From IMG/VR virus record IMGVR_UViG_3300042387_000725, positions 25,156 through 89,155 of that record: a DNA stretch of 64,000 nucleotides; one strand, given 5' to 3'. The notes beneath the pieces were generated by a model, which saw only the letters and a list, made by a program, of their open reading frames with translations, did not search any database and was not told the origin of the DNA. This DNA is from a virus. Shown piece after piece: positions 19,611-60,739 of the stretch. Position numbers and translations under genes: made by a program. Position 1 is the stretch's first letter. The number at the start of each line of letters is the position of its first letter.

Positions 19611-19645
19611 TTTGCTCCTTAGCCTTAATTATAGCAGGGCAAACC

Positions 19646-21676
19646 TTAATATAGTTTAATCTCACATGCATCTGTGCTGCAATATGCTTCACCCTGTGCT
19701 TCAAGATTTTCAACTCCATCATAAATAGCAGACCAGTCAATCTTACCAATTATTCCAACATATGCGTTGTATTCTTCTCTTGTGATTTCAGTATAAGGTT
19801 GCTGAGGATATGTTTGATTTCCCATTGGAAGGAATGATACTGCTTTTAGCTGTCCTTCGTACATATGAAGGGCAGGAGCAATAAACTTGGCCTCAGTTTC
19901 TTTATCAAATGAAAGTGTCACAGAAACACCATTATCTGACCAGTACTTCTGAGCAGTTGCTGCCAAACCAATTTTCTCAAATAGACTAACATTTTTTTCA
20001 GCACGTGGGTGACCAGACGCTACTGGGAAATACACTACTTGAGTATTTGCTGATACTAAATCTCTTTCAATTTTATATCCCGCTGCTTTAAACAAATGAA
20101 GCATTGGATCTTGGTCTCCAAAACGAATAGCACGAAGATAGAATGCTCCTCCTGGGCCCCAGTGAACCCCTGGAGTTGCACCAGACAGTAGTGATACAGA
20201 TCCTGATGGCTTAACGGTTGTCACACGAATTGACTCACGAACACATAGCCATTCTGAATATTGCTTGTCATAGCTACGAATCTTTTTGTATCCTTCATCC
20301 ATCCACTCACGAGTTATTGGCAAACCATTTTTATCAGCAAATGAGGCAATTCCTGTAAGGGATGTACCAATACGACGATTACGCTGCATAATTCCGTTTG
20401 TAGTTGGCCAGTGTGTTGGAAGAAGTGTTACAGTCTTTCCGTAAAGATATGCAAACTTCAATGTCTTAAGAAAGTCTTCCTTAGAATCATGACGATTTAG
20501 GTGAACTTCTACAAGAGTACAAAGTTCGTACGATTCCAATGGCTGCTCTGCACAAGGATTAAAGCCCATTACACGATAGTCTTTTCCGTCTGCAGGATCA
20601 GCAAGGCGACCATAATTACGAGCAACATCAAGCCAAATAAAACCTGGCTCTCCGTTATCTTTAATAAGGTCTACGTAGTCTTCATACTTTGTTCCGACTG
20701 TTGCAGAGATAGAGTTATTACTCATCCATGCCCAACCTGGTTTTTCTGGATCATATGAGTTACGTTCTGGAAATACTTCTGGATTCTTAAGATTAATAAA
20801 GTCTTCATCTTCTGGAGTACCAAGTGCTAGTGTTGCAGAACGACGAACATTTCCAGAAACAACACATGTTCCAATAAGATTAATGATATCTGTAATTGCA
20901 CGTGAGTCAAGGTTTTCCCCTGCTCTTCCTCCAATTACTTTATCAATTCTATTATGTAAATCAATTAGTGGTTGTGGTCCAGATGCTACTCCGCCAAACC
21001 CCTTAATTGGTGCACCTAATGGGCGAATCTCAGAATAATCAAACTTTTGAATATTTTGATTTTGACGAAGGTATGAGTTTAAAAGCATTTTTACTGACTC
21101 TACCCAGCCTTCACGAGTATCAGGAATAACATAGGTATTTACAGGCTCTGTAGGGCTGTAGATAGGCATTTCTTTATCTTGACCTAATGTATCAAACCCT
21201 ACTCCAATACCCAGCATAAGGGCATCCATAACCCACGAGAACAGGGCTCCTGGGTCATTGCGGTCAATATCTCTAGTAGATACCATTGCACAGTTTTGAA
21301 GGGCTGCAGAGTTACGCTTCTCCATAGTCATAGGAGTTCCAAATGTCCACATACCACGACCTGGGGGTGTCCACTTTAATTCAAACATTCTTTGAAAGGC
21401 TTCTTGTGCTGACTTCTGTGCCTTATTATCATTCCAAGGCAAACGATTCTCTTTGGCATGGTTCTTCTGTACTGAGTACATTCCTTCAATTACACGCTTA
21501 CAAACCTCATGCCATCTTTCTTTTGTTCCATCTTCCTTCACACGGGAATATGTACGAATAAACGTAATTTCTCCAAGTGAGTTAGATCCTGCATCTTGAT
21601 ATCCAAACGGAGCTGGAAGTGTTGAATATTTATTTACAAAATCTTCTGTTAAACGAAAAGAAAATATATCTGACAT
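19646..21676 (-). CDS. nrdJ: Class II (adenosylcobalamin-dependent) monomeric ribonucleotide reductase
   Basis: PPGRG, NCAM, VVSGNVRRSA, NPCAEQ catalytic loop, TTVKPSGSVS, C-terminal CSTDAC redox pair. Confidence 0.95.
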   Translation of the reverse strand: MSDIFSFRLTEDFVNKYSTLPAPFGYQDAGSNSLGEITFIRTYSRVKEDGTKERWHEVCKRVIEGMYSVQKNHAKENRLPWNDNKAQKSAQEAFQRMFELKWTPPGRGMWTFGTPMTMEKRNSAALQNCAMVSTRDIDRNDPGALFSWVMDALMLGIGVGFDTLGQDKEMPIYSPTEPVNTYVIPDTREGWVESVKMLLNSYLRQNQNIQKFDYSEIRPLGAPIKGFGGVASGPQPLIDLHNRIDKVIGGRAGENLDSRAITDIINLIGTCVVSGNVRRSATLALGTPEDEDFINLKNPEVFPERNSYDPEKPGWAWMSNNSISATVGTKYEDYVDLIKDNGEPGFIWLDVARNYGRLADPADGKDYRVMGFNPCAEQPLESYELCTLVEVHLNRHDSKEDFLKTLKFAYLYGKTVTLLPTHWPTTNGIMQRNRRIGTSLTGIASFADKNGLPITREWMDEGYKKIRSYDKQYSEWLCVRESIRVTTVKPSGSVSLLSGATPGVHWGPGGAFYLRAIRFGDQDPMLHLFKAAGYKIERDLVSANTQVVYFPVASGHPRAEKNVSLFEKIGLAATAQKYWSDNGVSVTLSFDKETEAKFIAPALHMYEGQLKAVSFLPMGNQTYPQQPYTEITREEYNAYVGIIGKIDWSAIYDGVENLEAQGEAYCSTDACEIKLY

Positions 21677-21824
21677 TTTAAACCTTTCAAAGTTAAATTA
21701 AGCTGAGTACTTCATGTTTTCTGAAGTAGTCTCTAAGTATAACACAACTTTTGTTTTATTTTAAGCACAAAATAAAAAGTCTAAATGATTACATGATAGT
21801 AGAGCTTTAGATTTACAATAGTTG

Positions 21825-22493
21825 TTATCTAAACATTGTATTATTTATATGGCTAATGTTTATACTATTTACATTAAAATGTTTAGGCAATGATGATACC
21901 CACAAAATAGACTGAGCAAGATCATTTGCGGTCAGTGCATCATTTTTCTTTTCTGCCTGAGTATCAATTGTTCCAGGACATATCTCAGTAATCTTAATGC
22001 CATATGCTGGAAACTCTAGTCTCATTGTTTCCAATAATCCAATTTCTCCCCTTTTAGCATTTGTATAGTTACCGCCACCAGGATAGGGAACGTTTCCACC
22101 TATTGATGTTACAAAAATTATTGTTGGAGAATTTGATCTTTGCATACAAGGTACAAATAGCTGAGAAATATACATTGGGCCAGTTACGTTTATGTCATAA
22201 GCTCTTCTAAAGTTTTCTGGAGTTTCATTAATAATTTGTGTTGGCCCAGCTCCTCCACCTGCATTATTTACTAAAAGATCAAGCGTAATGTCTTTGTATT
22301 TTTCAAAGAATAACTCTATGGCTTTTGAGTCTGTTATATCTAGTTGATAAACCTCAACGTTATCAGATACAAGATCAGATACCTTAGATAGGTCTCTTGA
22401 AACAGCAATAACCTTGTAACCATTTTCAGATAGTAGTTTTACTGTTTCTAGTCCAACGCCCTTGCTTGCCCCAGTTACAATTGCTGTTTTCAA
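21825..22493 (-). CDS. Short-chain dehydrogenase/reductase (YdfG-like)
   Basis: TGASKGVG, LVNNAG and YTNAK motifs. Confidence 0.92.
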   Translation of the reverse strand: MKTAIVTGASKGVGLETVKLLSENGYKVIAVSRDLSKVSDLVSDNVEVYQLDITDSKAIELFFEKYKDITLDLLVNNAGGGAGPTQIINETPENFRRAYDINVTGPMYISQLFVPCMQRSNSPTIIFVTSIGGNVPYPGGGNYTNAKRGEIGLLETMRLEFPAYGIKITEICPGTIDTQAEKKNDALTANDLAQSILWVSSLPKHFNVNSINISHINNTMFR

Positions 22494-23228
22494 TTACATA
22501 CTCTGATTTTTATTAATGTCCATATTGTTATGAATCCAATGGCCAGGTATCATATACTTAACCCCAGATTTTACAATATGGGCTGTATGAAAATACGGTG
22601 GAAATGCTGGAAATATAATAACACTATTTTCTTTTGGCTTTAGCCCAAAATCAATTGCTTTATTTTCAACAGATATATCATAGTCTAAATCTACAGCTGG
22701 TGCTGATCCTTTAGAAAAACCGTCAGCACTAGTCCATCCTCCATCATAATCCTTTAACTGGAAAGATATTTCTCCGCCTTCACAGTCATCATTTAGATAC
22801 ATAACTAGAGAGTATCTTAAAGTTTTGTCTCCATCTAGTTGGTCAAAATGTGCACCCATTCCCATTCCAGTGTTGTATTTCTTTATATTAAAGGTTGGAA
22901 AAAGTCTTGGCTCATCAAAATCACCCAATGAAGAAGCATAGTCCTTACATACATTGTACATTGTAGTCATGATAGCGTCATATATATATTTGCTTTTTTC
23001 CGCTACCTCACCAGTAAGGTTATTTATCGCATTGATGTCAAAAGTTTTTGTCTCTCCATAAATAAAAGTTTTATCGTTAGAAGAAGTCCAGGGATTCCAA
23101 ACGTTTACCCCTGACTCTGTGTATTGCTCAAGAGTATCTAACTCTTTCCATACTTTTTTAAAAGTATCAAAGTCTTCAATAGCATCAGTGTAGTAGTATA
23201 CTTTTGGGTCTAGTTTTTCTTTATTCAT
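22494..23228 (-). CDS. 2OG-Fe(II) oxygenase (prolyl-4-hydroxylase-like)
   Basis: HFD...YLNDDCEGGE...FHTAH...KY. Confidence 0.9.
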   Translation of the reverse strand: MNKEKLDPKVYYYTDAIEDFDTFKKVWKELDTLEQYTESGVNVWNPWTSSNDKTFIYGETKTFDINAINNLTGEVAEKSKYIYDAIMTTMYNVCKDYASSLGDFDEPRLFPTFNIKKYNTGMGMGAHFDQLDGDKTLRYSLVMYLNDDCEGGEISFQLKDYDGGWTSADGFSKGSAPAVDLDYDISVENKAIDFGLKPKENSVIIFPAFPPYFHTAHIVKSGVKYMIPGHWIHNNMDINKNQSM

Positions 23229-23239
23229 ATTTTTCTCCT

Positions 23240-23899
23240 CTAGTACTTGTTATTAACGTAAAAATCTTTTACTTTTATAAAGGCTGTAATGACATGTCTT
23301 ATTGGACCATCCCCCACATGCTTTACTCCATGCTCATGTTCTGGGTCACCTGGAAAAACAAGCAATGACCCTGGTTTTGGTCTTAACGTGATGTCAAAAT
23401 TTTTAAAGAAAAGTTCTCCATCAGAATAATTTTCATTAATATATAGGATTGCAGCATATCTAATAGATGGGTCTGTGTCTTGATCCACATGAGATTTTAA
23501 TTCAACACCAGTTTGCATTCTTTGTATAGTTCCCATGCCACCTACTATTAAATTTTCATCTGCTCTTTTAACTAAATCTTGTATTCTTTCTTGAAGTACT
23601 CTAGCTATATCATATTGCTGAATTTCAAGAATTTTATCATCCCATCCTTTAGTAACTTCATATTTGCCTTCATCAACTAGCTTTTGAACATCCGTTGTAC
23701 CAAATTTTTCTAAACAAAACTCAGCCAAACTTTTCTGATAAGCAACGTGCCACTCTGTTTCTTCTGTGGAGTTAATTATGTCTAATACTTGATGCAGTTC
23801 TTCTTTAGAGATAAAATCTTCTACTAGCAAAATGCTATCTGAAATATCTACAACGCTATAGTTGTCCTCAATAAGTTCTTTTCTTAAGAAACTACTCAT
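23240..23899 (-). CDS. 2OG-Fe(II) oxygenase (prolyl-4-hydroxylase-like)
   Basis: HVD...YINENYSDGEL...HGV...R. Confidence 0.9.
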   Translation of the reverse strand: MSSFLRKELIEDNYSVVDISDSILLVEDFISKEELHQVLDIINSTEETEWHVAYQKSLAEFCLEKFGTTDVQKLVDEGKYEVTKGWDDKILEIQQYDIARVLQERIQDLVKRADENLIVGGMGTIQRMQTGVELKSHVDQDTDPSIRYAAILYINENYSDGELFFKNFDITLRPKPGSLLVFPGDPEHEHGVKHVGDGPIRHVITAFIKVKDFYVNNKY

Positions 23900-24650
23900 T
23901 GCGATTTAACTCCTCTATCTTATACTTATTACCATCTTTATCTATTTTATAGCCCTTTTTAATAAGGTCCTGCCACTCTGCTCTTTCAATCTCTTGCTGT
24001 TCTCTTGTTGCTTTCATTTCTGCTGCCCAAGCATCTCTTAGCTCTTGCGGATAAGCATCTTCTTCTCTGTCATCCCAGAATGAACCTATGGTGTATCTTA
24101 CTCCGCTTTCAATTAAAGTAACTTCATGCATATTGTTAAAGCCACCGTCAAAGACAGCAAGCATTCCAACTTTTGGCTCAATTTCTATTTCTTGTCCTGG
24201 GAATCTTAATAGTCCACCTTTAAAATTATCATTTAGATAAAGGAACCCAGCATATCTACTTCTTGTAAATGCGCCAGAGTTTCCTTCAGCATCAGTATTG
24301 TCTGAGTGTACTCTTGCGTATGCTCCAGGTTCCCATTTTTGTGTGTGATATCCAATTTTACAAATTGTTTTTGGATCAAGATCGTGAACTGAAGCAATTG
24401 CTTCTGGCATTGTTTTTTCAATGTCTGAAAAAATAGTTGGAGATAATCCAGCATCAAGTACCTCTTGATCGTTATCTTGTGGAAGAACAGAAGAATATGA
24501 TTCATAAAATGAAATAGGCATCCATGACAACTTTCCACCTTCTGCTTGAGCATCAAGTGCCTGAATCATTTTTTTACAATCTTCATCACTAATAAAGTTT
24601 TCATAAATAACAATATCTTTTGTGATTCTTTTTTTATTGTTTAGATTCAT
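23892..24650 (-). CDS. 2OG-Fe(II) oxygenase (prolyl-4-hydroxylase-like)
   Basis: HSD...YLNDNFKGG...HEV...RY. Confidence 0.9.
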   Translation of the reverse strand: MNLNNKKRITKDIVIYENFISDEDCKKMIQALDAQAEGGKLSWMPISFYESYSSVLPQDNDQEVLDAGLSPTIFSDIEKTMPEAIASVHDLDPKTICKIGYHTQKWEPGAYARVHSDNTDAEGNSGAFTRSRYAGFLYLNDNFKGGLLRFPGQEIEIEPKVGMLAVFDGGFNNMHEVTLIESGVRYTIGSFWDDREEDAYPQELRDAWAAEMKATREQQEIERAEWQDLIKKGYKIDKDGNKYKIEELNRNE

Positions 24651-25513
24651 TTTATCCTTCTTTCTTTGTCAGCGCTAATTTTATTTGGATTATCTAGTCT
24701 AAATTCTTCTATAATAGATGGTTGCATTTCTGCCCAAACTTCTTTACCAAACTCTTTTTCTTTTTCAAACCACTCAGGACTGCCTACAGAATATTTCATC
24801 CAATACATTCTAGAAAGATACTTGTTTGCTCCCGTTGCAGGCATTACGCCATGTATGTAAACAGATCCATTTTTTGTTAATACATCTGGGTGACCTGATG
24901 GGAAAATCAAAAAATCTCCAGCCTTTGGCTTATACATGTATGCTTCACCATCAACAATAAAGTCTATCTCTCCACCTTCATAGTCGTCATTAAAATAACA
25001 AAGAGCAGTTATTGCAAACTTATACCCTGGACTTGTTATTGGCTCACGAATATAATCAGAATGATAGGTCATTGCTAGTGGGTCTTCAATATCTGTTTTA
25101 TATCTTGCTATAGATGGTCCAGTCATTTGCCATTCTTCCATAAGTTGACCATTATTTGCTAATACCGTTTTTGTTTTGTCAAGTTCTATACCATTACGTA
25201 AAGCATAGTCTTCAGTAGCTAAATAAAAATTTTTAAAAAGTTCAAGGATTGCAAGCTTTTGAAGTTCTTGTTTTTCTGTTTTTGTTTCTATTTCCTCAAT
25301 TAAGTCAATTCTTAAATTAGATTGGTAACCCTTAAACATAGGACTTAAATATTCTCCGAAATGAGCCCATTGAGTCCATGGACTAAAAATACCATCTTCT
25401 TCTCCTGTAGAATTTTTTAACAACTCATAGGTTTGTTCTATATTCTTAAAAAGATTTTTATATACAAATATTTTAGGATATATTTCAATGGCTTCTAAAG
25501 TATTTTGACTCAT
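24647..25513 (-). CDS. 2OG-Fe(II) oxygenase (prolyl-4-hydroxylase-like)
   Basis: HSD...YFNDDYEGGE...HGV...KY; start at the ATGA overlap (MSQNTL). Confidence 0.9.
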   Translation of the reverse strand: MSQNTLEAIEIYPKIFVYKNLFKNIEQTYELLKNSTGEEDGIFSPWTQWAHFGEYLSPMFKGYQSNLRIDLIEEIETKTEKQELQKLAILELFKNFYLATEDYALRNGIELDKTKTVLANNGQLMEEWQMTGPSIARYKTDIEDPLAMTYHSDYIREPITSPGYKFAITALCYFNDDYEGGEIDFIVDGEAYMYKPKAGDFLIFPSGHPDVLTKNGSVYIHGVMPATGANKYLSRMYWMKYSVGSPEWFEKEKEFGKEVWAEMQPSIIEEFRLDNPNKISADKERRIK

Positions 25514-26190
25514 GGCTTTCTGTCTCCTGTATGTGCCGTAATTTCCCAAAAAAATGGACATGTAAATCTTAATCCACTTTTTATTTCACTTACTCCATGG
25601 ATATAGTTTTTATCTCCTGGGAAAAAATAAGCAGCACCTTTCTTAGGTTTAAATTGCACACCTTGCAGAGGAAAATATAATTCTCCCCCTTCATAATCAT
25701 CATTTAAATAAAACAAACTTGAAAGATCATAGTTTGGAAAATCATTTGGAAGTCCAGCATCTGGTCCTTCATGAAGTTCTTTGTCTGCATGAGGCTTTTG
25801 AAATTGCCCTGGAAGCCATTTAACAATTGTAGTTCCAGTTGGTACAACTTCTACCTTATAAAAATCTTCAACAATTGGTTTTAGTCTTTGAAATAAACCA
25901 GCTATAACTGGGGCAATTCTAGGATCATTTTTGTCAAGACTAGGAGTTGTTGCTACTCTATCTTTCCAGTAGTCTGAGTCATATACAACAGTGCCGTTTT
26001 CATTTACATGGCTTTGTGTTACATCCCAGATAGTTAGAGATTTTGCTGCTTTTTCTAAAAACTCAATCTCTTCTTCAGTCATGAAGTTTTCTAGCTCTAC
26101 AATCATGTCTTTGCTGTCTCCAAACCATCCAGATGGGGTTATTGACGGAGATCTTTTTACTACTGTATATTCATCTTTGTTTTGTTCCAT
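25510..26190 (-). CDS. 2OG-Fe(II) oxygenase (prolyl-4-hydroxylase-like)
   Basis: HAD...YLNDDYEGGEL...HGV...RF; leaderless TATAAT-7nt-ATG. Confidence 0.9.
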   Translation of the reverse strand: MEQNKDEYTVVKRSPSITPSGWFGDSKDMIVELENFMTEEEIEFLEKAAKSLTIWDVTQSHVNENGTVVYDSDYWKDRVATTPSLDKNDPRIAPVIAGLFQRLKPIVEDFYKVEVVPTGTTIVKWLPGQFQKPHADKELHEGPDAGLPNDFPNYDLSSLFYLNDDYEGGELYFPLQGVQFKPKKGAAYFFPGDKNYIHGVSEIKSGLRFTCPFFWEITAHTGDRKP

Positions 26191-26192
26191 TT

Positions 26193-26915
26193 TTATATTA
26201 TATCATCCTTCGTATTATCTATTACTCCAAGCTTTATGGTTTTAGCCTCATGGCTACCCAAAGATTCACCTTTTTCATTTACTGCATTTCTATACCAGTC
26301 TGTCCATTTTCCTACCTTGTTAATTTCTTGTGCTGCATCTCCATAAGATTTATTTGCTGCTTGTTTTTTTCCATCTGGATCCGTGTATTTGTTAATTTGA
26401 ATAACAGTATTATTTAAGCTTGTTAAAGAGATAGGAATTATTGTTGCAAGTGGGGTTCCTGCCTTTATTGTTGTAATTTTATTTGCTGCTTTTGCTTTTG
26501 CTTTAATTGCTAATGGCAGAGGATTGTCATAAAAAGATGTACTTATAACGTTAGACATAGTTTCAAACTCGTCGCTATAATAATTGACTGGATTTATTGT
26601 AATAATGCTAAAATTTTCTTCTGTTCTAAAGTATAGACCAGTATCAAAACTTATTGATGACTGACCTCTTCCAGAATAAGCTCTATCTGGTCCAAAAACT
26701 TTTACATTGTCTGGACGCTCACTATTGATCCCATCCCACTCAAAACATACATCTTGTTTACAAAAAATACTCCAACCAATTGAATTTGCCTGTGTTACAG
26801 GAAAACAATGGTATGCATGTTTTTCTGATGAGACATCCATCCAGTCTCTCTTAATAGACATAGGAGAAATATCAAATAAAGAGTGTGAGTCTTTTTCAAT
26901 TATAACATTTATCAT
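26193..26915 (-). CDS. DUF6065-like protein
   Basis: KRDWMD...HAYHCFPVTQANSIGW...AGTPLATIIP motif; family recalled as associated with 2OG oxygenase clusters. Confidence 0.6.
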   Translation of the reverse strand: MINVIIEKDSHSLFDISPMSIKRDWMDVSSEKHAYHCFPVTQANSIGWSIFCKQDVCFEWDGINSERPDNVKVFGPDRAYSGRGQSSISFDTGLYFRTEENFSIITINPVNYYSDEFETMSNVISTSFYDNPLPLAIKAKAKAANKITTIKAGTPLATIIPISLTSLNNTVIQINKYTDPDGKKQAANKSYGDAAQEINKVGKWTDWYRNAVNEKGESLGSHEAKTIKLGVIDNTKDDII

Positions 26916-27571
26916 TAGTCTGCCTCTGCGCTATACATTTCTGGAGTATGAAACTTTTTACTGTAATCAAGCATTGTAACAATAGAGTACTTGAGTCCAG
27001 ATGTTACTGGCATTGCCTGATGAGGATACATGTAGTTTGATGGAAACACAAAAAGATCTCCTGCTTCTGGCTTAACCTTTAGGTTTTGAAGTCTAAAGAA
27101 TAACTCTCCACCCTCATAGTCATCATTTGGATATCCTACAAGTGATACAGTACAGTTATATGAGAATCCATGATCATGGTGTTCCATAAAGTGCTGTCCT
27201 GGACCATACTTAATAAAATTAAATGCTTCCCAATATTTTAGGTTATGAATATTGTGCATCTTGCAATAGTCTTCTACTACTGGAGACTTAACATCGTATA
27301 GATCTTGCCATAGTGACTGAAGGTTTAAGCTTGTTTCACTTGTATCATTTTCAATGTCTGTTTTCTTGAACTTAAAATCATTGCAATCTCTGTAGTCTGG
27401 CATTAATTGTTTATATCCAACATAGGCAGGCTGCCAACTGTATCCAGTCGTATCTCCTACTGGCTTAAGGTTTTCTTCAATTCTTTTAATTACTTCAATT
27501 TCTTTTTTAATTACACCTTTGTAACAGAATATTCCATTTCCAAGATTTTGTTTTTCTGTCCACGTTTGCAT
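26915..27571 (-). CDS. 2OG-Fe(II) oxygenase (prolyl-4-hydroxylase-like)
   Basis: HHD...YPNDDYEGGEL...FPSNYMYPH...KY. Confidence 0.9.
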   Translation of the reverse strand: MQTWTEKQNLGNGIFCYKGVIKKEIEVIKRIEENLKPVGDTTGYSWQPAYVGYKQLMPDYRDCNDFKFKKTDIENDTSETSLNLQSLWQDLYDVKSPVVEDYCKMHNIHNLKYWEAFNFIKYGPGQHFMEHHDHGFSYNCTVSLVGYPNDDYEGGELFFRLQNLKVKPEAGDLFVFPSNYMYPHQAMPVTSGLKYSIVTMLDYSKKFHTPEMYSAEAD

Positions 27572-27645
27572 TTATTGCTCCCTCTTTATATTTTTAGACT
27601 ATATTGCTATCTAACAGTTTACCATATTTATAGCAATTATATTTA

Positions 27646-28581
27646 TTATTCCTTCCAAACTGCATGAACACAGCTTGTGCAAAAATTTTCATAAGAATTT
27701 TTAATCATATTTTTGCGTTCTTGGCTTTCCCATATTTCCTTTATTGGCTTTTCATTAATATTAGCAAATATTGTTTCAAACTCATAGTCATTGCAGCATA
27801 AGAATACATCTCCATTAGCATTTATATGTATCCAATCTTCAGTCCTACTTCCCATATTATTGCAGCCAATAACCTTGCCCTTTTTATTTATTTTATTTTT
27901 CATTATTTTACGAGTATCTAAATTTCCTGCTCTGTCAACTAAAGATATATTTGGAAATATTCTAATTTCTGGGAATGACTCTTTCATTTGCTTAAGAGCA
28001 ATTGCTGTATCTCCAGTATTATCATCTAAATTTATTTCAGGAGCATTTTCCAATAACTCTGTATATCTAAGTGAACTTTGGTTAATTCCATTAACTTGCA
28101 TTGAAATTTTTTCAACAGGAAAATTATCTATAGCGTATCTAATGTTGTCCATAACTCTTTGGTGCATTTTTTCAGGTTTACCTGTCATTTTTGACCAGGT
28201 AGCAGCATCAGCGGAAGGTGTATTAAAGTGGATTAAATCAACTACATCACTATATTCTTTGATAATGTCCATCTTTTCTTTTGTTAATGGAGAACCATTT
28301 GTTAGTACAACTGTTCTAACTCCATGCTCTCTAAACAAATCAAGCATTTCTTTAAAATGCTCATAAAGCAAAACTTCGTTATAGTGTGCTGTATAAATAA
28401 AAGAAAACTGTGGATCTACAAAATCTCCAATACCAGCCTTTAGCTGTTCAAGAATAGACCTAATTGTTTCAATAGACATGGTTTTTCTACCAATTGCTGG
28501 GTTTCCATCATATGCTACAGGACAAAACCAACAACCAAGATTACACAAACCATTAGGATCTAATTGAACTAACTTTATCAC
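27646..28581 (-). CDS. Radical SAM enzyme with SPASM/twitch domain
   Basis: CNLGCWFC (CxxxCxxC), LTNG, C-terminal C...INANGDVFLCCND...CTSC. Confidence 0.92.
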   Translation of the reverse strand: MIKLVQLDPNGLCNLGCWFCPVAYDGNPAIGRKTMSIETIRSILEQLKAGIGDFVDPQFSFIYTAHYNEVLLYEHFKEMLDLFREHGVRTVVLTNGSPLTKEKMDIIKEYSDVVDLIHFNTPSADAATWSKMTGKPEKMHQRVMDNIRYAIDNFPVEKISMQVNGINQSSLRYTELLENAPEINLDDNTGDTAIALKQMKESFPEIRIFPNISLVDRAGNLDTRKIMKNKINKKGKVIGCNNMGSRTEDWIHINANGDVFLCCNDYEFETIFANINEKPIKEIWESQERKNMIKNSYENFCTSCVHAVWKE

Positions 28582-28592
28582 ATTGTTACCAT

Positions 28593-29360
28593 CTATCTAT
28601 ATTCTCTTCTTGACCATACTTTATTTTTATATATACCGCCATCTGGTTGACGATAAAATTTTGAATTATCAACCATATTACCATATATCTCTGATTGATT
28701 CAAAATCTCTATATTATGATCCCAGTTTTCTCTTTTAAATGGCAAAATCTGAAGATACGGAGTTCCTGCTGGAATTGTTCCTTCCCAACCATCTGCAATA
28801 AAAAATGGAAAACTTCCAAGAAGATGAACTTTATCTGAATCAACAACACCAGTGGTATTTAAAAATGGAAGATCAAATCTATTCATTGGTGTCATGAATA
28901 GTGCACTATATCCTTCTGGTAGTTTTAATCCCCAGTCAGCAGACCATGCAAAATGATACTTGTAGTATCCATGCGGATGTTCAAACTGTGGCATAGGAGG
29001 TCTCTGAGTACAAAAGTCTTGATACTTAGAGTCTTCAATCTTTACATTAATTATACCCTGCGAGTTTTTAAAAAATGTTAAGTCACAAGGGGTTTTAAAA
29101 ACATATCCAGTTGAAAATGCATCCATGATTGCAGGACATGCTTTCCATGTTGGAATCTTTCCATAATCATCAGTAGTTCCCTCTTTTGGAAATGGACAAA
29201 CCTCTTTTGGCGCTTTATAGTATTCCCCATTTGGCATCTTTGCAAATCTATCTGCATCTTTGTACCAGTCTGGAATTTCTTTTTGTGTTGGAACAGGAAC
29301 AGAAATACTTTCTTTATTTAGCCATGGCCTATAAGATTTAAATGTAGCTATTAGTGACAC
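28593..29360 (-). CDS. DUF6065-related protein
   Basis: PDWYK...TWKACPAIMDAFSTGY...GVVDSD...IPAGTPYLQILPFKRE; distant paralog of 26193-26915. Confidence 0.5.
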   Translation of the reverse strand: MSLIATFKSYRPWLNKESISVPVPTQKEIPDWYKDADRFAKMPNGEYYKAPKEVCPFPKEGTTDDYGKIPTWKACPAIMDAFSTGYVFKTPCDLTFFKNSQGIINVKIEDSKYQDFCTQRPPMPQFEHPHGYYKYHFAWSADWGLKLPEGYSALFMTPMNRFDLPFLNTTGVVDSDKVHLLGSFPFFIADGWEGTIPAGTPYLQILPFKRENWDHNIEILNQSEIYGNMVDNSKFYRQPDGGIYKNKVWSRREYR

Positions 29361-30088
29361 TACTTATGACCTAGCTCGTTAATATCTGTCATTACCACAA
29401 CACAGTACTTTGTACCTGACTTCATCGGAAGAGATGCATGCTCATAAATATAGTTTGAAGGAAATACTGCTATATCTCCAACTCTTGGTGTATGAACATA
29501 GTTGTCTAGTCTTGGGAACTTTATTTCTCCACCTTCGTAATCATCATTAATATAGATTACTGCAGATACTGTGCAATTGTAGGCTGGACCATGATCAGCA
29601 TGAATATTAAAGTGTGTTCCTTCTCCTTCATACTTTACAAAATTAAATGCTTCATAATAAACAACATTGATTCCCCAGTATGCAGCGTAATCATCAATGC
29701 AGTACTTTAATTTTTGATAGATCTCTTCATGAAGATCTAAAAGTTCTGAGTTTGTTTCATCTCTTGGTCCTAAGTTTTCCTGCTTGTACTTAAAGTCTAC
29801 ACAGTCTCTAGCCTTCTTGATAGGAGTTGTAGAATTAGTTACCTGAGCTTCTGACCATTTATGTTTTTTGTCACCAGACAGATTTGACTCAAGAATATTT
29901 ATGTATCTATCAGCATCTGCTTTAGAAAATGTATCATGATATACATGCAGGCCTAATCCAAGATTCTCAGCGACAATGCCATCTTTGAGCTGTCGTGGAG
30001 GGATTCTGTTTGATGCTGTTTCTGATCTATCTTTAGTAAACCAGTAGTTTGAGTTTTCATCTTGTACTTGTAAGTTATTATATTCCAT
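29360..30088 (-). CDS. 2OG-Fe(II) oxygenase (prolyl-4-hydroxylase-like)
   Basis: HAD...YINDDYEGGE...FPSNYIYEH...KY; close paralog of 26915-27571. Confidence 0.9.
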   Translation of the reverse strand: MEYNNLQVQDENSNYWFTKDRSETASNRIPPRQLKDGIVAENLGLGLHVYHDTFSKADADRYINILESNLSGDKKHKWSEAQVTNSTTPIKKARDCVDFKYKQENLGPRDETNSELLDLHEEIYQKLKYCIDDYAAYWGINVVYYEAFNFVKYEGEGTHFNIHADHGPAYNCTVSAVIYINDDYEGGEIKFPRLDNYVHTPRVGDIAVFPSNYIYEHASLPMKSGTKYCVVVMTDINELGHK

Positions 30089-30887
30089 TTGTTTCTCCCT
30101 TTTTTTCTGTTAAATTTAATTGCTTAGCCATATATTTTTTAGTTAAATACCCAATTAAAGTATTTTCTTGTGGAGTAGAAGACATGCTTGGAATTTCTAC
30201 CTGATGTCTTTTCCAAGAAGAAGAAAATAAAGATACAGCAACACTATTACGTATTAATTTTTTACTATATTCAAAACTTATTGGATCTAAAAAGCTATCT
30301 ATATGTGAATACCTTATTGGATTAAACACACTCTCTTCTTTGGCAAAACTTGTTAAATTGTTTTTTTCAATTATTTTTGTAAGTAGCTCTGGACCATTTG
30401 CAATTTGATCCTTTTGTGATCCATTTGGTATAAAAACAAAATTATCAATTAATTCATTTAAAATCTTTTTATCATTTATATACAAAATACCATTGCCAAT
30501 TCTTACTGGCTCTTTTGCTGGGTAAGGCTTGTCTATAAGAAATCCAAAAAGATATGGTTCTGGATCTGGCCACTCATCTTTTAAACAGACGGAATCAGAA
30601 TCTGTCCAAATAAGATTTGTGTTTTTTAACATATGCAATCTAAAGAAATCAGCAAACTGTGCATGCCCACCTCCAAAGAGTTCATTATCAAATTTTGTTA
30701 GAAATATATCTTTTTCTAATACAATTTCATTGGCATCTTTTTTTATGGCACCCTCTGGTACCTCAATAGACATATCATATAAATATATATTTAGTTCATG
30801 TCCATGATAAATATATGAATTCCATGAGAGTTGCTGTAACAATGTTGGTTTATTTCCAAACCACAATGTACCAAACTTTAAACCCAT
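30078..30887 (-). CDS. GT-A glycosyltransferase (GT32/alpha-1,4-GT-like)
   Basis: FADFFRLHML...IWTDSD (DxD)...GPELLT motif. Confidence 0.8.
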   Translation of the reverse strand: MGLKFGTLWFGNKPTLLQQLSWNSYIYHGHELNIYLYDMSIEVPEGAIKKDANEIVLEKDIFLTKFDNELFGGGHAQFADFFRLHMLKNTNLIWTDSDSVCLKDEWPDPEPYLFGFLIDKPYPAKEPVRIGNGILYINDKKILNELIDNFVFIPNGSQKDQIANGPELLTKIIEKNNLTSFAKEESVFNPIRYSHIDSFLDPISFEYSKKLIRNSVAVSLFSSSWKRHQVEIPSMSSTPQENTLIGYLTKKYMAKQLNLTEKKGETNGI

Positions 30888-30946
30888 AAGTTTATGCCCC
30901 AATCTTATTTAATCAATCATACCATATAGTTGATTTATAAGAATAA

Positions 30947-31228
30947 TTATTTATTTTTTAATGTATTTAGTTCGTCTTCTAGTTTTTCTATTTTTTGCAT
31001 TAAGATCTTTAAAACTTCTACTGCATAAACAGAAAGAATGTCATACCTAAGAGCCATAGGCTTATCTTCTTTATCTAAGATAACCATATACTTTAAAGAG
31101 TCTACCTCATTAACCTCTTCTGCTATATATCCTAGTTGCCTAATATTTTTAGGATCATTATTATATATCCAGGTTACTGGGTTTAAAGCTTGTATGGCTT
31201 TTTCAAAATCAATTTCAGTTGACCCCAT
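30947..31228 (-). CDS. Stand-alone C-terminal part of a peptidase S74 intramolecular chaperone domain
   Basis: IQALNPVTWIY...GYIAEEV...LRYDILSVYAVEVLK plus coiled coil; lacks the N-terminal S-x-x-R-x-K motif. Confidence 0.8.
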   Translation of the reverse strand: MGSTEIDFEKAIQALNPVTWIYNNDPKNIRQLGYIAEEVNEVDSLKYMVILDKEDKPMALRYDILSVYAVEVLKILMQKIEKLEDELNTLKNK

Positions 31229-31246
31229 GTTATTTAACTACCCCTT

Positions 31247-32095
31247 TTATGAATTGATGTTTACAACCCTCATTATACTGTGCTTAAACCTCGCAGATGA
31301 GTATCCAAATCTTGGGAAGAACGGGAAGAATGGAGGGAAGAACGGTGGGAAGAACGGTGGGAAGAACGGTGGGAAGAACGGGAAGAAAGGTGGGAAGAAC
31401 GGTGGGAAGAACGGGAAGAACGGGAAGAAAGGTGGGAAAAATGGAGGGAAGAACGGGAAGAATGGTGGGAAAAATGGAGGGAAAAATGGTGGAGTTGTTG
31501 TAATAGAACCAGAAGCATCTGAAGTTTCAGAATTTCCATTAGCATTTGTTGCATAAACTGTGTATGTCTGAGAAGTGCCACCTTCTTGAGCTACTGCAGC
31601 GCTTAGAGTTGATCCTGATACTGTTGCTCCCTTAGAATCAGAAGATGCCCAAGTATATCCAGTAATCGCAGAACCACCATTTGCTGGGGCAGACCAAGAA
31701 ACGTTATCTTGATTAACCTGTGTAGTTACAGTTGGTGCTGAAGGTTTAGCTGGAACTGTTGTTGCAGTAATTGAAGCAGATTCTGACGAAGCAGTAGATG
31801 TTCCTGCAGCATTTGTTGCTGTTACTGTAAATGTATAGGCAGTATTAGATTGAAGACCAGTTACAGTGACTGGAGAAGTTGCACCAGTACCTGTAAAACC
31901 TCCAGGAGATGAGGTAGCTGTAAAAGATGTGGCTGCAGGAGAAAGTGCTGGTAGAGAGAAAGAAACAGTTGCTGCACCATTATTAAATGCTCGTGCAGTT
32001 CCAACATTTGTTGCTGTAACATCTGTTGGAGCTAATGGTTCTAAGAAGTCATTTGATGCCTGAGACTTCTTACCCGCTTTTTTCCCTGCTGCCAT
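31247..32095 (-). CDS. FN3-domain virion protein with (PPFF/PFF)n tail and S74 cleavage motif
   Basis: Two FN3 repeats (TGLQSNTAYTFTVTATN; VSWSAPANGGSAITGY), 60-aa Pro/Phe-only tract, ends YSSARFKHSI. Confidence 0.85.
   Translation of the reverse strand: MAAGKKAGKKSQASNDFLEPLAPTDVTATNVGTARAFNNGAATVSFSLPALSPAATSFTATSSPGGFTGTGATSPVTVTGLQSNTAYTFTVTATNAAGTSTASSESASITATTVPAKPSAPTVTTQVNQDNVSWSAPANGGSAITGYTWASSDSKGATVSGSTLSAAVAQEGGTSQTYTVYATNANGNSETSDASGSITTTPPFFPPFFPPFFPFFPPFFPPFFPFFPFFPPFFPPFFPFFPPFFPPFFPPFFPPFFPFFPRFGYSSARFKHSIMRVVNINS
31313..31492 (-). repeat. 12/9-nt tandem repeat encoding PPFF/PFF (16 units)
   Basis: Tandem ccNccNttYttc and ccgttcttc units. Confidence 0.95.
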
Positions 32096-32117
32096 TTTTA
32101 TCTCCTAGTTTATTGTA

Positions 32118-33497
32118 TTACGCTGTTAAATCGCCGTAGACAACCCAAGTATTTTCTGCTCTTTTGAAAAGAGTTGCAGATGACCACTGAGTTCTTAGCT
32201 TTAATCCTGGTGTTGCATTTACTGTTACTCCTACTGCTCCTGCAATTGTAACCTGTCCTGTTCCCGTCTGAAGAATATCTAGTGATGTTCCGATTGGGTA
32301 TGCAATTGTTGCATTTAGAGGAATTGTTAATGTAAGTGCTGAAGAGGATCCCATTTCAATTAAATCATCTCTGTGATCCAATGTTGAAAGTGTGTATGAA
32401 GCAGTCTTTTGAGTAATAGGTGTTAAAGAGTCTACCTTTAATCCAAGGCTAGTTGTTACTGTTCCTGCAAAATCAGCGTCGTCTCCGAGTGCTGCAGCAA
32501 GTTCATTAAGAGTATTAAGTGCTGCTGGTGCGCTATCAAGAACTGCATTTACCTGAGCAGTTGCATCTGCAATTGCTTCTGTCTTAGCAGTTTCAATCGC
32601 TGTAGCCTGTGCGGTTGACACTGGCTTATCTGCATCTGCTGTGTTATCAACATTTCCAAGCCCTACATCCGCTTTTACAATCCCTACTGGAGATGTAATT
32701 GTTTTATTTGTTAAAGTTTGTGTTCCAGTTGTTGTAACTAGTATGCTAGTGTCTGCAATGCCGTGTACGTTTGTTGTATCATCATTGTGTGTTGTAACAT
32801 ATCCAGATGCTGTTGATTCTGCTTCTGATTTAGCAGTTGCAACATTTGATGTAGTTGCAAGAACTGAAGTATCTGCAATACCATGAACGTTTGTTGTGTC
32901 GTTATTGTGTGTTGTTACTGCTCCATCTGCATATGTCTTTGTTGCTACTGTGCTATCAATATCAAACTGATCTGTGTCTGCATTCCAGTCAATTCCTGTT
33001 CCTGCAAGTTCTGACTGATCAACTGTTGCATTTCCAACTGCAGTTCCAACATACTCTTCCATACCATCTTGTGTTACGAGAACTGAGGTGTCAGTAATTC
33101 CATGAACGTTTGTTGTGTCGTTATTATGTGTTGTTACTGCGCTATTTGTAAAAGACTGAGTTGCAAGGTCTGCCGTATTAGCAATTCCGTGAATATCTGT
33201 TGTATCAGATTGGTGATTAGATAGGTTTGTTGCTACTGTTGAGAAAAAGTTTGGATCATCATTTATTGCTGCTGCAAGCTCATTTAGAGTATCAAGTGCT
33301 CCTGGTGCTCCAGCAATAAGGTTAGATATTGAGTCACTATCTGAGAAGTATGAGAGGTCTGACCAGTGGTTAGTTCCATCACCAATCTTAAACTTATTTG
33401 TGTCTGTTTCGTATCCAATTTCTGCTACGTTTAGAATTGGATCTGCAGAGGTCCACTGAGAAGCAGTTCCTCTGCGCTGTTGCATTCTTGTTGCCAT
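32118..33497 (-). CDS. Tail fibre protein with Mtd_N-like N-terminus
   Basis: MQQRRGTASQW...PIL...EIGYETDTNKFKIGDG; LxTLNELAAA repeats; four H-x6-HGI repeats. Confidence 0.85.
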   Translation of the reverse strand: MATRMQQRRGTASQWTSADPILNVAEIGYETDTNKFKIGDGTNHWSDLSYFSDSDSISNLIAGAPGALDTLNELAAAINDDPNFFSTVATNLSNHQSDTTDIHGIANTADLATQSFTNSAVTTHNNDTTNVHGITDTSVLVTQDGMEEYVGTAVGNATVDQSELAGTGIDWNADTDQFDIDSTVATKTYADGAVTTHNNDTTNVHGIADTSVLATTSNVATAKSEAESTASGYVTTHNDDTTNVHGIADTSILVTTTGTQTLTNKTITSPVGIVKADVGLGNVDNTADADKPVSTAQATAIETAKTEAIADATAQVNAVLDSAPAALNTLNELAAALGDDADFAGTVTTSLGLKVDSLTPITQKTASYTLSTLDHRDDLIEMGSSSALTLTIPLNATIAYPIGTSLDILQTGTGQVTIAGAVGVTVNATPGLKLRTQWSSATLFKRAENTWVVYGDLTA

Positions 33498-33537
33498 TTT
33501 TATACTCCTCTAGTATTTGTATATTATATCAGACAAT

Positions 33538-33990
33538 TTAGTTAAAATTATCTATTGCTTCTCCACCAACCCATGTGGCTTCCCATGAATTAGTATTGTA
33601 TTGTCCAGCACTTACCAAATACCCTGGCTCATCATATGAACCACCACTGACGAAAACACTTGCAATTAAACCATTTCCATCAATAGATGTATCGTGAATG
33701 TGGTCTTGCAAAACTTCTGAATCCTCAAGAGTTGCAATAGCAATCCACTGAGAACTATAGTAAACATGAACTCTTTCGGTTATGGTGTCAAACCATAAAT
33801 CTCCATTTTCTGGAGATACTGGAGGGGTATCAGAAACATCAATTCCTCCAGCTACACTATCTACATAGTCTTTAGTTGCTGCGTGTGTACCTAATGTAGG
33901 ATTTGATACTGTTACTGTACCGCCAAAAGATCCACCAAGGGCAACGCTTAACCCATTTTTAACTTTAAAGTCTTTGTTTACCGTTGCCAC
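33538..33990 (-). CDS. Minor tail/fibre protein
   Basis: PTLGTHAATKDYVD and PENGDLWFD fibre motifs; N-terminus shared with 34011-35858. Confidence 0.7.
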   Translation of the reverse strand: MATVNKDFKVKNGLSVALGGSFGGTVTVSNPTLGTHAATKDYVDSVAGGIDVSDTPPVSPENGDLWFDTITERVHVYYSSQWIAIATLEDSEVLQDHIHDTSIDGNGLIASVFVSGGSYDEPGYLVSAGQYNTNSWEATWVGGEAIDNFN

Positions 33991-34010
33991 TTAGTGTCTC
34001 CTTTAGTTAA

Positions 34011-35858: not shown

Positions 35859-35874
35859 TTTTTATCTCCTTTGT

Positions 35875-36321
35875 CTATGCCTTCAAGCCCATACGTGCAT
35901 AACGTACGGTTATAGGGGTTTGTCCAGCTACTGGTGTCACAGTGAGGGCAACTGTGTCGCTGACCCTGGAGACGCTAATGGTGCCAATATTCCCATCGTT
36001 GTCAATTGTTCCATATTCGCTAACCGATACATTTGTACCGTCAACGAGGATTGTCATTTCTGTGGCATAAAACTTATTTGCGCCAGCAGAAGTCTTTTTA
36101 ATGGAGATGATATATTTAACCATTCTCCATACTGTTGCATCAAAATTATCAATGACTGTTGCATTCTCAATTCCAGTGATTGTATTTTCGTTATTACCAG
36201 CAGAACCTAAATCTGTTGACTGCGCTGCTGTTGTGTCAATAAGGTTTTCGTAGTCAGTTTGACTTGGACGATCACCAGTTTGGAAGTAAGTCTTCAAACT
36301 TGATAATGATAATTTTGCCAT
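35875..36321 (-). CDS. Minor tail protein
   Basis: LKTYFQTGDRPSQTDYENLIDT anchor motif; C-terminal domain similar to that of 34011-35858. Confidence 0.65.
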   Translation of the reverse strand: MAKLSLSSLKTYFQTGDRPSQTDYENLIDTTAAQSTDLGSAGNNENTITGIENATVIDNFDATVWRMVKYIISIKKTSAGANKFYATEMTILVDGTNVSVSEYGTIDNDGNIGTISVSRVSDTVALTVTPVAGQTPITVRYARMGLKA

Positions 36322-36351
36322 GTCTGTATTATAACATAATTATTTATACAA

Positions 36352-36576
36352 TTAAATGATGTAGTTTGAGAACCCAATTATTTGGATTCCAATTCCTGGA
36401 GGGTTTGAAGAAGAAAACCCTTCAATCATTACAGTACTGATTTTAACCCTAAATGGAAGTATAGACTCAACCCTAGTAAGTGGTGCAGAATATTCTATTT
36501 GTGTTATTGGATAATTAACGGCATTAGGAATTGCTACCCTCTTACTGTAATCGTCAATAATTACAGCAGTTGCCAT
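36352..36576 (-). CDS. Small virion-module hypothetical protein
   Basis: Coupled ORF in the tail gene cluster. Confidence 0.6.
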   Translation of the reverse strand: MATAVIIDDYSKRVAIPNAVNYPITQIEYSAPLTRVESILPFRVKISTVMIEGFSSSNPPGIGIQIIGFSNYII

Positions 36577-36980: not shown

Positions 36981-37125
36981 AGTATTTCTATTATACCACC
37001 TTGAATTATAACAAAATGATAACAATATAAAAAAATGTCAAGAATTTGCTTTTGAAGGCAAATTCGTGTTATACTTAGATTATGCTACCAACAGGTAGCA
37101 TTTGTTCTCTAGGAGGTATTTTACA

Positions 37126-37674: not shown

Positions 37675-37683
37675 AGTTAAATA

Positions 37684-37723
37684 AAAATACCCCCCTTGGA
37701 TATTTTCCTTGGGGGGTTTTTTA
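37684..37723. terminator. Bidirectional terminator between convergent SLT and FN3 genes
   Basis: CCCCCC/GGGGGG stem flanked by A-run and T-run. Confidence 0.7.
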
Positions 37724-37745
37724 TGCTGCTTTTAAAATTTGTAGA

Positions 37746-38804: not shown

Positions 38805-38807
38805 TGT

Positions 38808-60673: not shown

Positions 60674-60739
60674 ATCAAATATTATACCATTTTGCTTAAT
60701 ATGCTATAATCTTTGTATAGATAAAGATAGAGGTGTAAG

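Follow-up and report, generated by a model that had tools for sequence, protein, structure and literature searches.

A Pro/Phe-repeat protein and a cassette of prolyl-hydroxylase-like oxygenases in uncultured lake phages: a candidate system for virion protein modification

The window analyzed here is a stretch of 64,000 nucleotides of virus DNA, namely the right-hand 64 kb (positions 25,156 to 89,155) of the 89,155-base IMG/VR record IMGVR_UViG_3300042387_000725, whose completeness is estimated at 82%. On its minus strand, at 21825-32095, a gene for an FN3-domain protein with a tract of only proline and phenylalanine is followed by a cluster of oxygenase, DUF6065 and other enzyme genes. Judged by gene content, this cassette is widespread in uncultured lake phages, and we hold it to be slightly better than an even prospect that the oxygenases hydroxylate the (Pro-Pro-x-Phe)n tract of a fibre protein, here probably with glycosylation to follow. 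A preliminary description of the window had proposed that the phage hydroxylates, glycosylates or cross-links a Pro/Phe tail; hydroxylation gained from the linkage of tract and enzymes and from the likeness of the enzymes to prolyl 4-hydroxylases (P4H), and glycosylation from a gene fusion in a relative, while cross-linking gained nothing.

The association of tract and enzymes was examined from both sides. At least 120 IMG/VR loci (single loci bear L numbers below) were fetched solely by a degenerate DNA pattern for PPFFPPFFP, and a tract open reading frame (ORF) was present in 110 of the 120 listed. Among the 81 tract ORFs of these loci that had at least 2.5 kb of downstream sequence, 65 were followed within 4 kb on the same strand by an oxygenase gene and 57 by a DUF6065 gene. 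In the reverse sample, an alignment search with the DUF6065 protein encoded at 26193-26915 (DUF6065a) retrieved at least 596 stretches from IMG/VR and, from the genome collection, 14 loci, nine of them phage contigs binned into lake metagenome-assembled genomes (MAGs). A tract ORF lay upstream on the same strand in all 55 of the loci with at least 3 kb of upstream sequence (86 loci examined), and it was kept where DUF6065a had diverged to 38% (L215), 31% (L216) and 26% (L217) identity. At L215 (4980-6615), about 45 hexapeptide units of the form [SG]PPxFF precede a Hint domain, directly upstream of oxygenases and both DUF6065 types. The preliminary description had named the neighborhood of tract genes and enzymes across relatives as a test of its proposal, and the outcome was positive in both directions (65/81 and 55/55). 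In 25 tract-bearing records of 49-113 kb, oxygenases of family PF13640 were found in every record (1-12 copies) and DUF6065 in 22, and of 19 whole records with no oxygenase in the fetched tract flank, 14 carry PF13640 elsewhere. The usual gene order is Mtd_N fibre, tract gene, oxygenase, DUF6065b, oxygenase, DUF6065a, further oxygenases, short-chain dehydrogenase and ribonucleotide reductase (RNR), with the Mtd_N fibre gene found upstream of the tract gene in 81 of the 120 listed loci. No complete relative lacking one of the partners (tract or enzymes) was found among the samples examined, and a literature search, whose cover did not extend to subscription journals, found no publication describing a cassette of tract, oxygenase and DUF6065.

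The candidate substrate is the 282-aa product of the first gene (Table 1), in which residues 202-261 (31313-31492) form a 60-residue tract of only Pro (28) and Phe (32), arranged as 11 PPFF units with PFF units in between, as the preliminary description had read it. The underlying DNA repeats imperfectly with a period of 12 nt (15.2 copies, 79% matches) and is written with three codons for Pro (CCA, CCG and CCT) and two for Phe (TTC and TTT), which argues for selection on the protein and not on the DNA. The degenerate pattern for PPFFPPFFP occurred 13 times in the window, against a mean of 0.00 in 100 shuffles. Directly after the tract, the 282-aa protein continues with RFGYSSARFKHSIMRVVNINS, where RFGY comes first and then about the first 17 residues of an S74 domain (SSARFKHSI...). 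Glycine is absent from the 60 residues, so the tract lacks the Gly-X-Y pattern of a collagen substrate, and serine is absent as well, so that the Ser-Pro(3-5) motif of extensins is missing although P4H-like enzymes are present. A position in the virion is suggested for the protein by where its gene lies. The second FN3 protein with a Pro/Phe tract and the collagen-like fibre reported for the same region were both recovered (Table 1).

Across 156 distinct tract ORFs the units were PPFF (52%), PFF (30%), PPYF (8%) and PPHF (2.5%), shares that are biased by the search pattern, and tract length had a median of 60 residues and a maximum of 166. The tract usually comes after FN3 domains; what follows it varies and may be more FN3, the beginning of an S74 domain, a self-cleaving domain of the Hint/intein type, a hypervariable tail rich in Cys, or nothing beyond a bare ...PPxFK end. 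A protein search with residues 150-282 matched 383 proteins at E values up to 0.001 among 8000 scored candidates; these were named only "hypothetical protein", "titin" and similar, and some had Intein_splicing or PT-HINT domains. At L109, an 841-aa minus-strand ORF encodes a Mtd_N-like fibre that ends in a Hint domain and contains short PPFF tracts, Thr-rich linkers, runs of (PTTEE)n and (APTE)n, and six modules with Cys, each about 45 residues long; the presence of PPFF tracts inside such a fibre indicates that the element belongs to tail-fibre architecture.

The seven 2-oxoglutarate/Fe(II) (2OG-Fe(II)) oxygenases of the cassette, described earlier as having intact HxD...H triads, all scored above the PF13640 cut-off (33.4-49.6 bits against 27). 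The H, D and H of the triad are invariant in their alignment, and each of the seven has K or R, the basic residue for the 2-oxoglutarate carboxylate, about 10 residues past the last His. A profile of the seven compared with solved structures matched best the P4H of Bacillus anthracis (7.5e-13) and prolyl 3-hydroxylase 1 (8.5e-10), followed by the prolyl 4-hydroxylase 5c5t (2.3e-8; the fifth-listed match and third distinct protein, which we take to be of viral origin), a PKHD-type hydroxylase, PHD2 and a transmembrane P4H; LH3 (1e-4) and Tet-like enzymes (3e-4) came only later. From this order of matches the enzymes are protein prolyl-hydroxylase-like, a resemblance that we treat as likeness only. 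The further enzymes that had been listed for the cluster, comprising two DUF6065-like proteins, a radical SAM/SPASM enzyme, a short-chain dehydrogenase and a DxD glycosyltransferase, are likewise all present on the minus strand.

DUF6065 is closely tied to two of the oxygenases. The product of 28593-29360 (DUF6065b) has no Pfam match and shares phrog_7084 with DUF6065a (1.6e-34 versus 1.3e-7), and its halovirus relative matches PF19541; one cysteine, C37, is invariant in DUF6065. The ORF before DUF6065a was of the OG2 type in 141 of 152 cases and that before DUF6065b of the OG1 type in 95 of 133 (loci not de-replicated), and in the window both oxygenase/DUF6065 pairs share a start/stop position. 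Atlas clusters include fusions of DUF6065 to PF13640 (84 members, viral) and to Cupin_8/JmjC (73 members, bacterial). A DUF6065 profile matched no solved structure at E values up to 1, and the idea that DUF6065 might be a hidden oxygenase was rejected after profile comparison with the oxygenases (probability 0.2%). Among 50,697 isolated-phage records, DUF6065b-like genes occurred in 50, mostly haloarchaeal viruses, and OG2-like genes in 309, mostly cyanophages. In Halorubrum virus VOLN27B (L206, 6869-9674), a DUF6065 homolog lies between tail genes and an RNR gene, near a Gly-rich 354-aa protein. The chromosome of Sphingomonas prati (L219, 7959-9695) encodes a 578-aa fusion of DUF6065 with a JmjC/Cupin_8-type hydroxylase among O-antigen-ligase-like, glycosyltransferase and sugar-transferase genes, and similar loci were seen in two other Sphingomonas species and two MAGs.

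Evidence on glycosylation comes from relatives of the glycosyltransferase. At L119, the orthologs of the glycosyltransferase and of OG1 form one 518-aa ORF, with the glycosyltransferase at residues 5-266 and the oxygenase at 286-518, and all seven IMG/VR relatives of the glycosyltransferase keep the order S74 fragment, glycosyltransferase, OG1, DUF6065b, OG2, DUF6065a. The gene is, however, present in only 2 of the 120 listed tract loci, so that the earlier proposal of hydroxylation followed by glycosylation gains support from the fusion, for a gene of restricted occurrence. The S74 chaperone fragment reported downstream of the tract gene is indeed there, as the back part of a split domain: its gene shares the reading frame of the tract gene and is parted from it by TAA and TAG, and the S74 domain is not one contiguous unit, since the Ser...Lys start (SSARFK) ends the tract protein and profile positions 18-52 lie in the next gene. 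In six of six glycosyltransferase-bearing relatives with upstream sequence, the tract protein likewise ends in an S74 start motif, and the split (30947-31306 here; L245-L251) always adjoins the glycosyltransferase gene. As the same split recurs in all six, we regard it as real and as traveling with the glycosyltransferase. In independent assemblies, contigs from three other lake-water runs matched 31400-32197 without any difference, and one run reproduced 31015-31364, including both stop codons; in this check short contigs break within the repeat, none spans the whole stretch and uncovered parts are uninformative. In four lake-water runs the summed contig depth was about 100-860 over the tract (31317-31504) and about 6-35 over the FN3 part, an excess that points to many other tract-bearing sequences in the same lake metagenomes.

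Table 1. Features of the cassette and its fibre-gene surroundings, in window coordinates and in the order of the minus strand
Feature	Position	Strand	Remarks
Collagen-like fibre	41010-41726	-	About 14 G-X-Y triplets
Second tract protein	37746-38804	-	Three FN3 stretches; 45-residue Pro/Phe tract at 37770-37904; ends RFSYGGY
Mtd_N-type tail fibre gene	32118-33497	-	Conserved upstream neighbor of the tract gene
Two-FN3 protein with Pro/Phe tract, 282 aa	31247-32095	-	fn3 match E 2.8e-9; candidate substrate
Peptidase_S74 fragment, 93 aa, plus coiled coil	30947-31228	-	E 7.1e-6, profile positions 18-52 of 58
Gb3_synth-type DxD glycosyltransferase	30078-30902	-	24.2 bits against cut-off 22.3; one DSD motif
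P4H-like oxygenase OG1 (PF13640)	29360-30088	-	Start/stop-coupled to the next DUF6065-like gene
DUF6065-like protein b	28593-29360	-	phrog_7084; relatives in haloarchaeal tailed viruses
Radical_SAM with SPASM-type C-terminus	27646-28581	-	52.7 and 44.7 bits against cut-offs 29.5 and 21.5
P4H-like oxygenase OG2 (PF13640)	26915-27571	-	Most widely kept; always right before DUF6065a
DUF6065 protein a (PF19541)	26193-26915	-	E 7e-25; 88.3 bits against cut-off 26.6
P4H-like oxygenase OG3 (PF13640)	25510-26190	-	
P4H-like oxygenase OG4 (PF13640), 304 aa, long C-terminus	24647-25561	-	
P4H-like oxygenase OG5 (PF13640)	23892-24650	-	
P4H-like oxygenase OG6 (PF13640)	23240-23899	-	
P4H-like oxygenase OG7 (PF13640)	22494-23228	-	
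Classical short-chain dehydrogenase (TGASKGVG, YTNAK)	21825-22493	-	Closes the cassette before class II RNR

The radical SAM enzyme keeps different company. Its CX3CX2C motif (CNLGCWFC) begins at residue 13, thus leaving no N-terminal extension, and its C-terminal part holds five cysteines only (240, 262, 263, 301 and 304). SPASM domains with two auxiliary clusters are defined by a seven-cysteine motif, which this enzyme lacks; one auxiliary cluster (twitch-like) is more likely. NCBIfam maturase models all scored far below their cut-offs against it, with a weak sub-threshold likeness to DynA and AmcB. Its gene occurs in one of the 120 listed tract loci (L107), and its 20 close relatives (74-85% identity; L224-L243) belong to another kind of cassette: neither DUF6065 nor a PPxF tract occurs at any of the 20 loci, and all 20 have a P4H-like oxygenase (one to three oxygenases each). 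In 19 of the 20, the gene upstream on the same strand codes for a fibre protein in which a Cys-rich tail accompanies a tract of the (TP)n, (APTP)n, (GPTP)n or (TPPPIIA)n kind; for the remaining locus the upstream sequence is no longer than 2 kb. A gene-by-gene reading covered three of these loci (L228, L230 and L236), two of which (L228 and L230) were also compared with Pfam. At the first of them (L228, 1766-7514), a Mtd_N-like or FN3 fibre with tract is followed in turn by a small Cys protein resembling DUF6171, a P4H-like oxygenase, the radical SAM enzyme, a glycosyltransferase of family PF11397 and an epimerase that is NAD-dependent. A Cys-rich tail motif, C.GC.RNYC..CP.CC..CGC, is common to the ends of (TP)n and PPFF proteins; in this genome, no Cys-rich fibre tails that could serve the radical SAM enzyme as substrate were found in real frames. 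On these gene neighborhoods, the enzyme is a rare accessory borrowed from the (TP)n-type cassette and lies outside the core. The wider rule would then be a P4H-like oxygenase beside a Pro-rich fibre tract, with proline as the common feature of all tracts, and there are hints that DUF6065 and a high oxygenase count are features of the aromatic PPxF type. In this phage the radical SAM enzyme may act on the tract or, with a glycosyltransferase and a dehydrogenase encoded close by, on a sugar, and the dehydrogenase could equally work on a sugar.

From about 44.7 kb down to 7 kb, every long ORF of the window is on the minus strand, running from the collagen-like fibre through the three-FN3 protein with Pro/Phe tail, a 615-aa tail fibre and the Mtd_N-type fibre to the cluster (32095-21825), and on to class II RNR, a 1155-aa ORF, portal, prohead protease and a capsid-type protein. 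Flanked on one strand by tail-fibre genes and by the RNR, portal, protease and capsid genes, the tract/enzyme cluster is embedded in the late, structural direction. Many neighboring genes share or overlap start and stop codons (e.g., at 29360, 26915 and 24647-24650), and a scan of 19000-38900 for promoters and terminators gave no more sites than in shuffles, a result that carries no information about transcription units. The 1155-aa ORF (16143-19610, minus strand) between the RNR and portal genes has no Pfam or PHROG match. Near-identical DNA was found in lake-water metagenomes from several studies, with at least half of the sampled words present in six runs; RNA datasets were absent from the runs listed, which has no bearing on expression. 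A megablast search of the cluster against the 50,697 phage records gave no match, nor did tblastn with the tract protein and the radical SAM enzyme, where the low-complexity filter may hide the tract. At 60% identity, the window RNR resembles those of Mycobacterium phage Gaia and Actinomycetia phage DSL-LC01, and this genome also has a GP88-family gene; together these hint at actinobacterial hosts for the tract-bearing lake phage lineage. A tenth PF13640 oxygenase (43894-44697, minus strand) heads the fibre block, with a CDGSH-type iron-binding motif just under the cut-off (27.7 against 29.5 bits). A second enzyme island at 59270-63621 holds a Gly_transf_sug glycosyltransferase (59270-59953, plus strand), a Mannosyl_trans3-type transferase (62791-63621, plus strand) and two PF13640 oxygenases (59930-60673, minus strand; 61025-61699, plus strand), one of which has a sub-threshold Tet_JBP match.

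In the mechanism that we favor, a fibre-region protein would display a long (Pro-Pro-x-Phe)n tract after its FN3 domains, and late in infection the oxygenases would hydroxylate prolines of the tract; other tract positions might be hydroxylated too, given seven diverged paralogs. DUF6065 would act as the dedicated partner of two oxygenases, and in this phage the extra glycosyltransferase would add a sugar to the hydroxylated residue. The virion would thereby gain a stalk or tip that is stiff, sticky or resistant to proteases. A more far-reaching possibility, which we advance tentatively and think unlikely, is that (Pro-Pro-x-Phe)n represents a novel type of enzymatically built fibre material, a "phage extensin", with roles for two-component hydroxylases, DUF6065, sugars and self-cleaving modules. 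The P4H-like oxygenase and DUF6065 would then be two-component hydroxylases decorating prolines and aromatics, and DUF6065 would be the subunit that recognizes the aromatic repeat, it accompanies PPxF tracts and was seen in none of the 20 loci whose tracts are of the (TP)n type. Some phages would also attach sugars, and the finished polymer, laid bare by the self-cleavage of S74 or Hint modules, would form the distal end of a fibre that binds receptors or serves adhesion. What this window newly contributes is the glycosyltransferase with its OG1 fusion, the conserved split of S74 and the placing of the radical SAM enzyme as a borrowed accessory.

Several observations weigh against hydroxylation of the tract. 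Of the 81 tract ORFs, 16 have no oxygenase within 4 kb, these exceptions including second paralogs (such as that at 37746-38804) and long FN3 proteins with a short tract as linker, and five of the 19 whole records checked lack any PF13640, albeit these are only 6-31% complete. The tract loci may be one broad lake-phage lineage in which a shared order can be inherited, and the conserved gene order is for that reason not independent evidence. Profile scans found no PF13640 in the halovirus record with DUF6065 and no DUF6065/PF19541 in cyanophages with PF13640. In cyanophage ACG-2014f, PF13640-family oxygenases stand in non-fibre contexts, and this phage was accordingly rejected as an independent replicate of the link between oxygenase and fibre. 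In the present genome there are three more oxygenase copies elsewhere, two of them beside other glycosyltransferases, and seven paralogs exceed the need of a single proline hydroxylation. Finally, in the case of the chlorovirus P4H, virions did not contain detected hydroxyproline (PMC7019647).

The closest known kinds of system, by analogy, are viral and bacterial P4H acting on Pro-rich repeats, collagen hydroxylase-glycosyltransferase pairs, the Skp1 pathway, and plant extensins and arabinogalactan proteins. In plants, P4H hydroxylates the Pro-rich repeats of the latter proteins, and subsequent O-glycosylation turns them into stiff, extended rods. Tracts of the (TP)n and (AP)n type in the radical SAM-related cassettes resemble these plant motifs, whereas the tract here has no Ser-Pro(n) motifs, is half Phe and belongs to a phage protein from the bacterial cytoplasm. 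In the Skp1 pathway of Dictyostelium and Toxoplasma, P4H acts first and a sugar transferase then acts on the hydroxyproline, and L228 has a PF11397 "GlcNAc" transferase (presumably the Skp1 transferase family) beside its P4H-like oxygenase; Skp1 differs in that a single proline of a globular regulator is modified and not a polymer, and PF11397 is absent from this genome and present in 2 of the 25 tract-bearing records. LH3 and 6ax6 (a "procollagen lysyl hydroxylase and glycosyltransferase" that we take to be mimivirus L230) are weak sequence matches to the window oxygenases and combine hydroxylase and glycosyltransferase in one polypeptide, the two acting successively on a fibrous repeat protein, as the L119 fusion may do. 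Their substrate, however, is the lysine of G-X-Y collagen, the tract here is without Gly or Lys, and the glycosyltransferase is of another family (Gb3_synth region). With chlorovirus PBCV-1 the likeness lies in a virus-encoded small P4H-type oxygenase whose substrates are Pro-rich repeat peptides from proteins of the virus itself (Eriksson et al. 1999, cited in PMC7019647). Unlike the lake-phage cassettes, PBCV-1 has one enzyme instead of 7-12, no DUF6065 partner, a eukaryotic host, PAPK-type repeats instead of PPxF, and enzyme and substrate genes that are not in one cassette. The passages of PMC7019647 devoted to this enzyme describe its role as still unknown, hydroxyproline being undetected in virions.

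Among phages, Syn9 offers the nearest arrangement, with ten tandem dioxygenases at gp41-gp54, together with a non-dioxygenase protein with a conserved cysteine, according to the section of Iyer, Abhiman, de Souza and Aravind (2010, PMC2938197) that treats this locus; the same section gives a dUTPase-like fold for a Syn9 protein with a conserved cysteine. Its authors, in that section, proposed metabolite synthesis and named no protein substrate (PMC2938197). Syn9 shares with the present cassette many diverged tandem dioxygenases and an array directly after tail-fibre and fibre-assembly genes, several of them Gly-rich, but differs in its halogenases and JmjC enzyme, in having no PPFF tract in neighboring genes and in having no PF19541 match. 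Syn9 gp43 (L223, 16055-16843) resembled the DUF6065a profile weakly (probability 32%, E 4.8e-4), with shared RxW, C-P and AGTP...IP motifs. We guess that gp43 is the gene to which the dUTPase-like fold was assigned. In S-SCSM1 (L207, 2081-3346), an annotated short tail fibre with a (RQPRxFR)n-like Pro/Phe/Arg repeat lies between two groups of 2OG-Fe(II) oxygenase genes, which we record as an anecdote. Set against all these known systems, the cassette is distinct in the motif of its candidate substrate, its number of diverged oxygenases, its DUF6065 partners and its phage-fibre setting.

Other explanations must be weighed against hydroxylation of the tract. The oxygenases might modify another virion protein of the block (the Mtd_N fibre, the collagen-like fibre or another tail protein), with the tract protein as a mere neighbor. 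Such a target is suggested by the collagen-like protein, whose G-X-Y triplets have Pro and Lys at positions used by collagen hydroxylases, the nearest solved relatives of the oxygenases including collagen prolyl and lysyl hydroxylases, and by the Mtd_N fibre gene, which is as constant an upstream neighbor as the tract gene (81 of the 120 listed loci); in Syn9 and S-SCSM1, moreover, oxygenase arrays adjoin tail-fibre genes without a PPFF tract. Yet a full-length relative of the collagen-like fibre was found in only 4 of the 25 tract-bearing records, against oxygenases in all 25, the Mtd_N fibre has no Pro-rich region, it is the tract gene and not the fibre that directly precedes the first oxygenase, and in the radical SAM cassettes the neighbor is again a Pro-rich tract. 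We therefore consider modification of another virion protein improbable. Still less probable, in our estimate, is that the array makes or tailors a small molecule or free peptide on which oxygenases, dehydrogenase, radical SAM enzyme and glycosyltransferase all act. The short-chain dehydrogenase, radical SAM enzyme and glycosyltransferase are common in metabolite pathways, the DUF6065-JmjC fusions of Sphingomonas lie among polysaccharide-type genes, and tandem dioxygenase arrays of cyanophages were read as metabolite pathways in the part of Iyer et al. 2010 (PMC2938197) concerned with them. Against this, Pfam, NCBIfam and PHROG scans found no peptide synthetase, ATP-grasp ligase, halogenase or transporter in the cassette, the best structural relatives of the oxygenases act on proteins, the partner that stays constant from locus to locus is a Pro-rich protein, and few copies of the cassette include the radical SAM enzyme or the glycosyltransferase (1 and 2 of the 120 listed loci).

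A similarly small chance attaches to the oxygenases being auxiliary metabolic or host-takeover genes (acting on the 2-oxoglutarate/succinate balance, or on host proteins such as translation factors) that owe their position to chance of genome architecture. This is how cyanophage literature takes such oxygenases, their function there being called uninvestigated in the pertinent lines of PMC9602691; the oxygenase profile also matches PHD-type and PiuC-type hydroxylases and a Pseudomonas PHD homolog, and extra oxygenase copies lie in the early region of this genome. The cassette genes, however, are start/stop-coupled on the late strand between fibre and head genes, their arrangement with respect to the tract gene persists even where DUF6065a has fallen to 26% identity, and dedicated pairing or fusion with DUF6065 and the glycosyltransferase is not to be expected of a metabolic drain. 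Least probable is a scheme like that of ribosomally synthesized and post-translationally modified peptides (RiPPs), in which the Pro/Phe tail would be a core peptide, cross-linked at aromatics by the radical SAM/SPASM enzyme and then released. It was suggested by the SPASM-type gene inside this cassette, and the faint likeness to the DynA and AmcB maturases and the many tract proteins ending in self-cleaving Hint or S74 modules would fit it. Hint and S74 modules cleave at their own N-terminus, and self-cleavage would consequently leave the tract on the FN3 protein. The RiPP-like part of the preliminary description thus found no support: the radical SAM gene is confined to 1 of the 120 listed tract loci, the cassettes of its 20 close relatives contain no PPFF tract, a CX3CX2C motif at residue 13 leaves no room for an N-terminal recognition domain, the C-terminal cysteines number only five, and the maturase scores stayed far below cut-offs.

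Hydroxylation of a Pro/Phe fibre tract would be of consequence beyond this phage. Phage genomes, those of aquatic phages especially, are rich in 2OG-Fe(II) oxygenase genes, and the cassette provides a concrete, cloneable candidate enzyme-substrate pair; because a 60-residue tract of two amino acids adjoins the enzymes, a mass shift should be easy to read. The cassette is also common, with a DUF6065a relative in at least 596 IMG/VR stretches and tract-like depths in the hundreds in lake metagenomes. If the proposal is true, bacteriophage virion fibres would be enzymatically hydroxylated and in some phages glycosylated, DUF6065 would gain a role, a new Pro/aromatic structural repeat would be defined, and the finding would bear on host binding by abundant lake phages.

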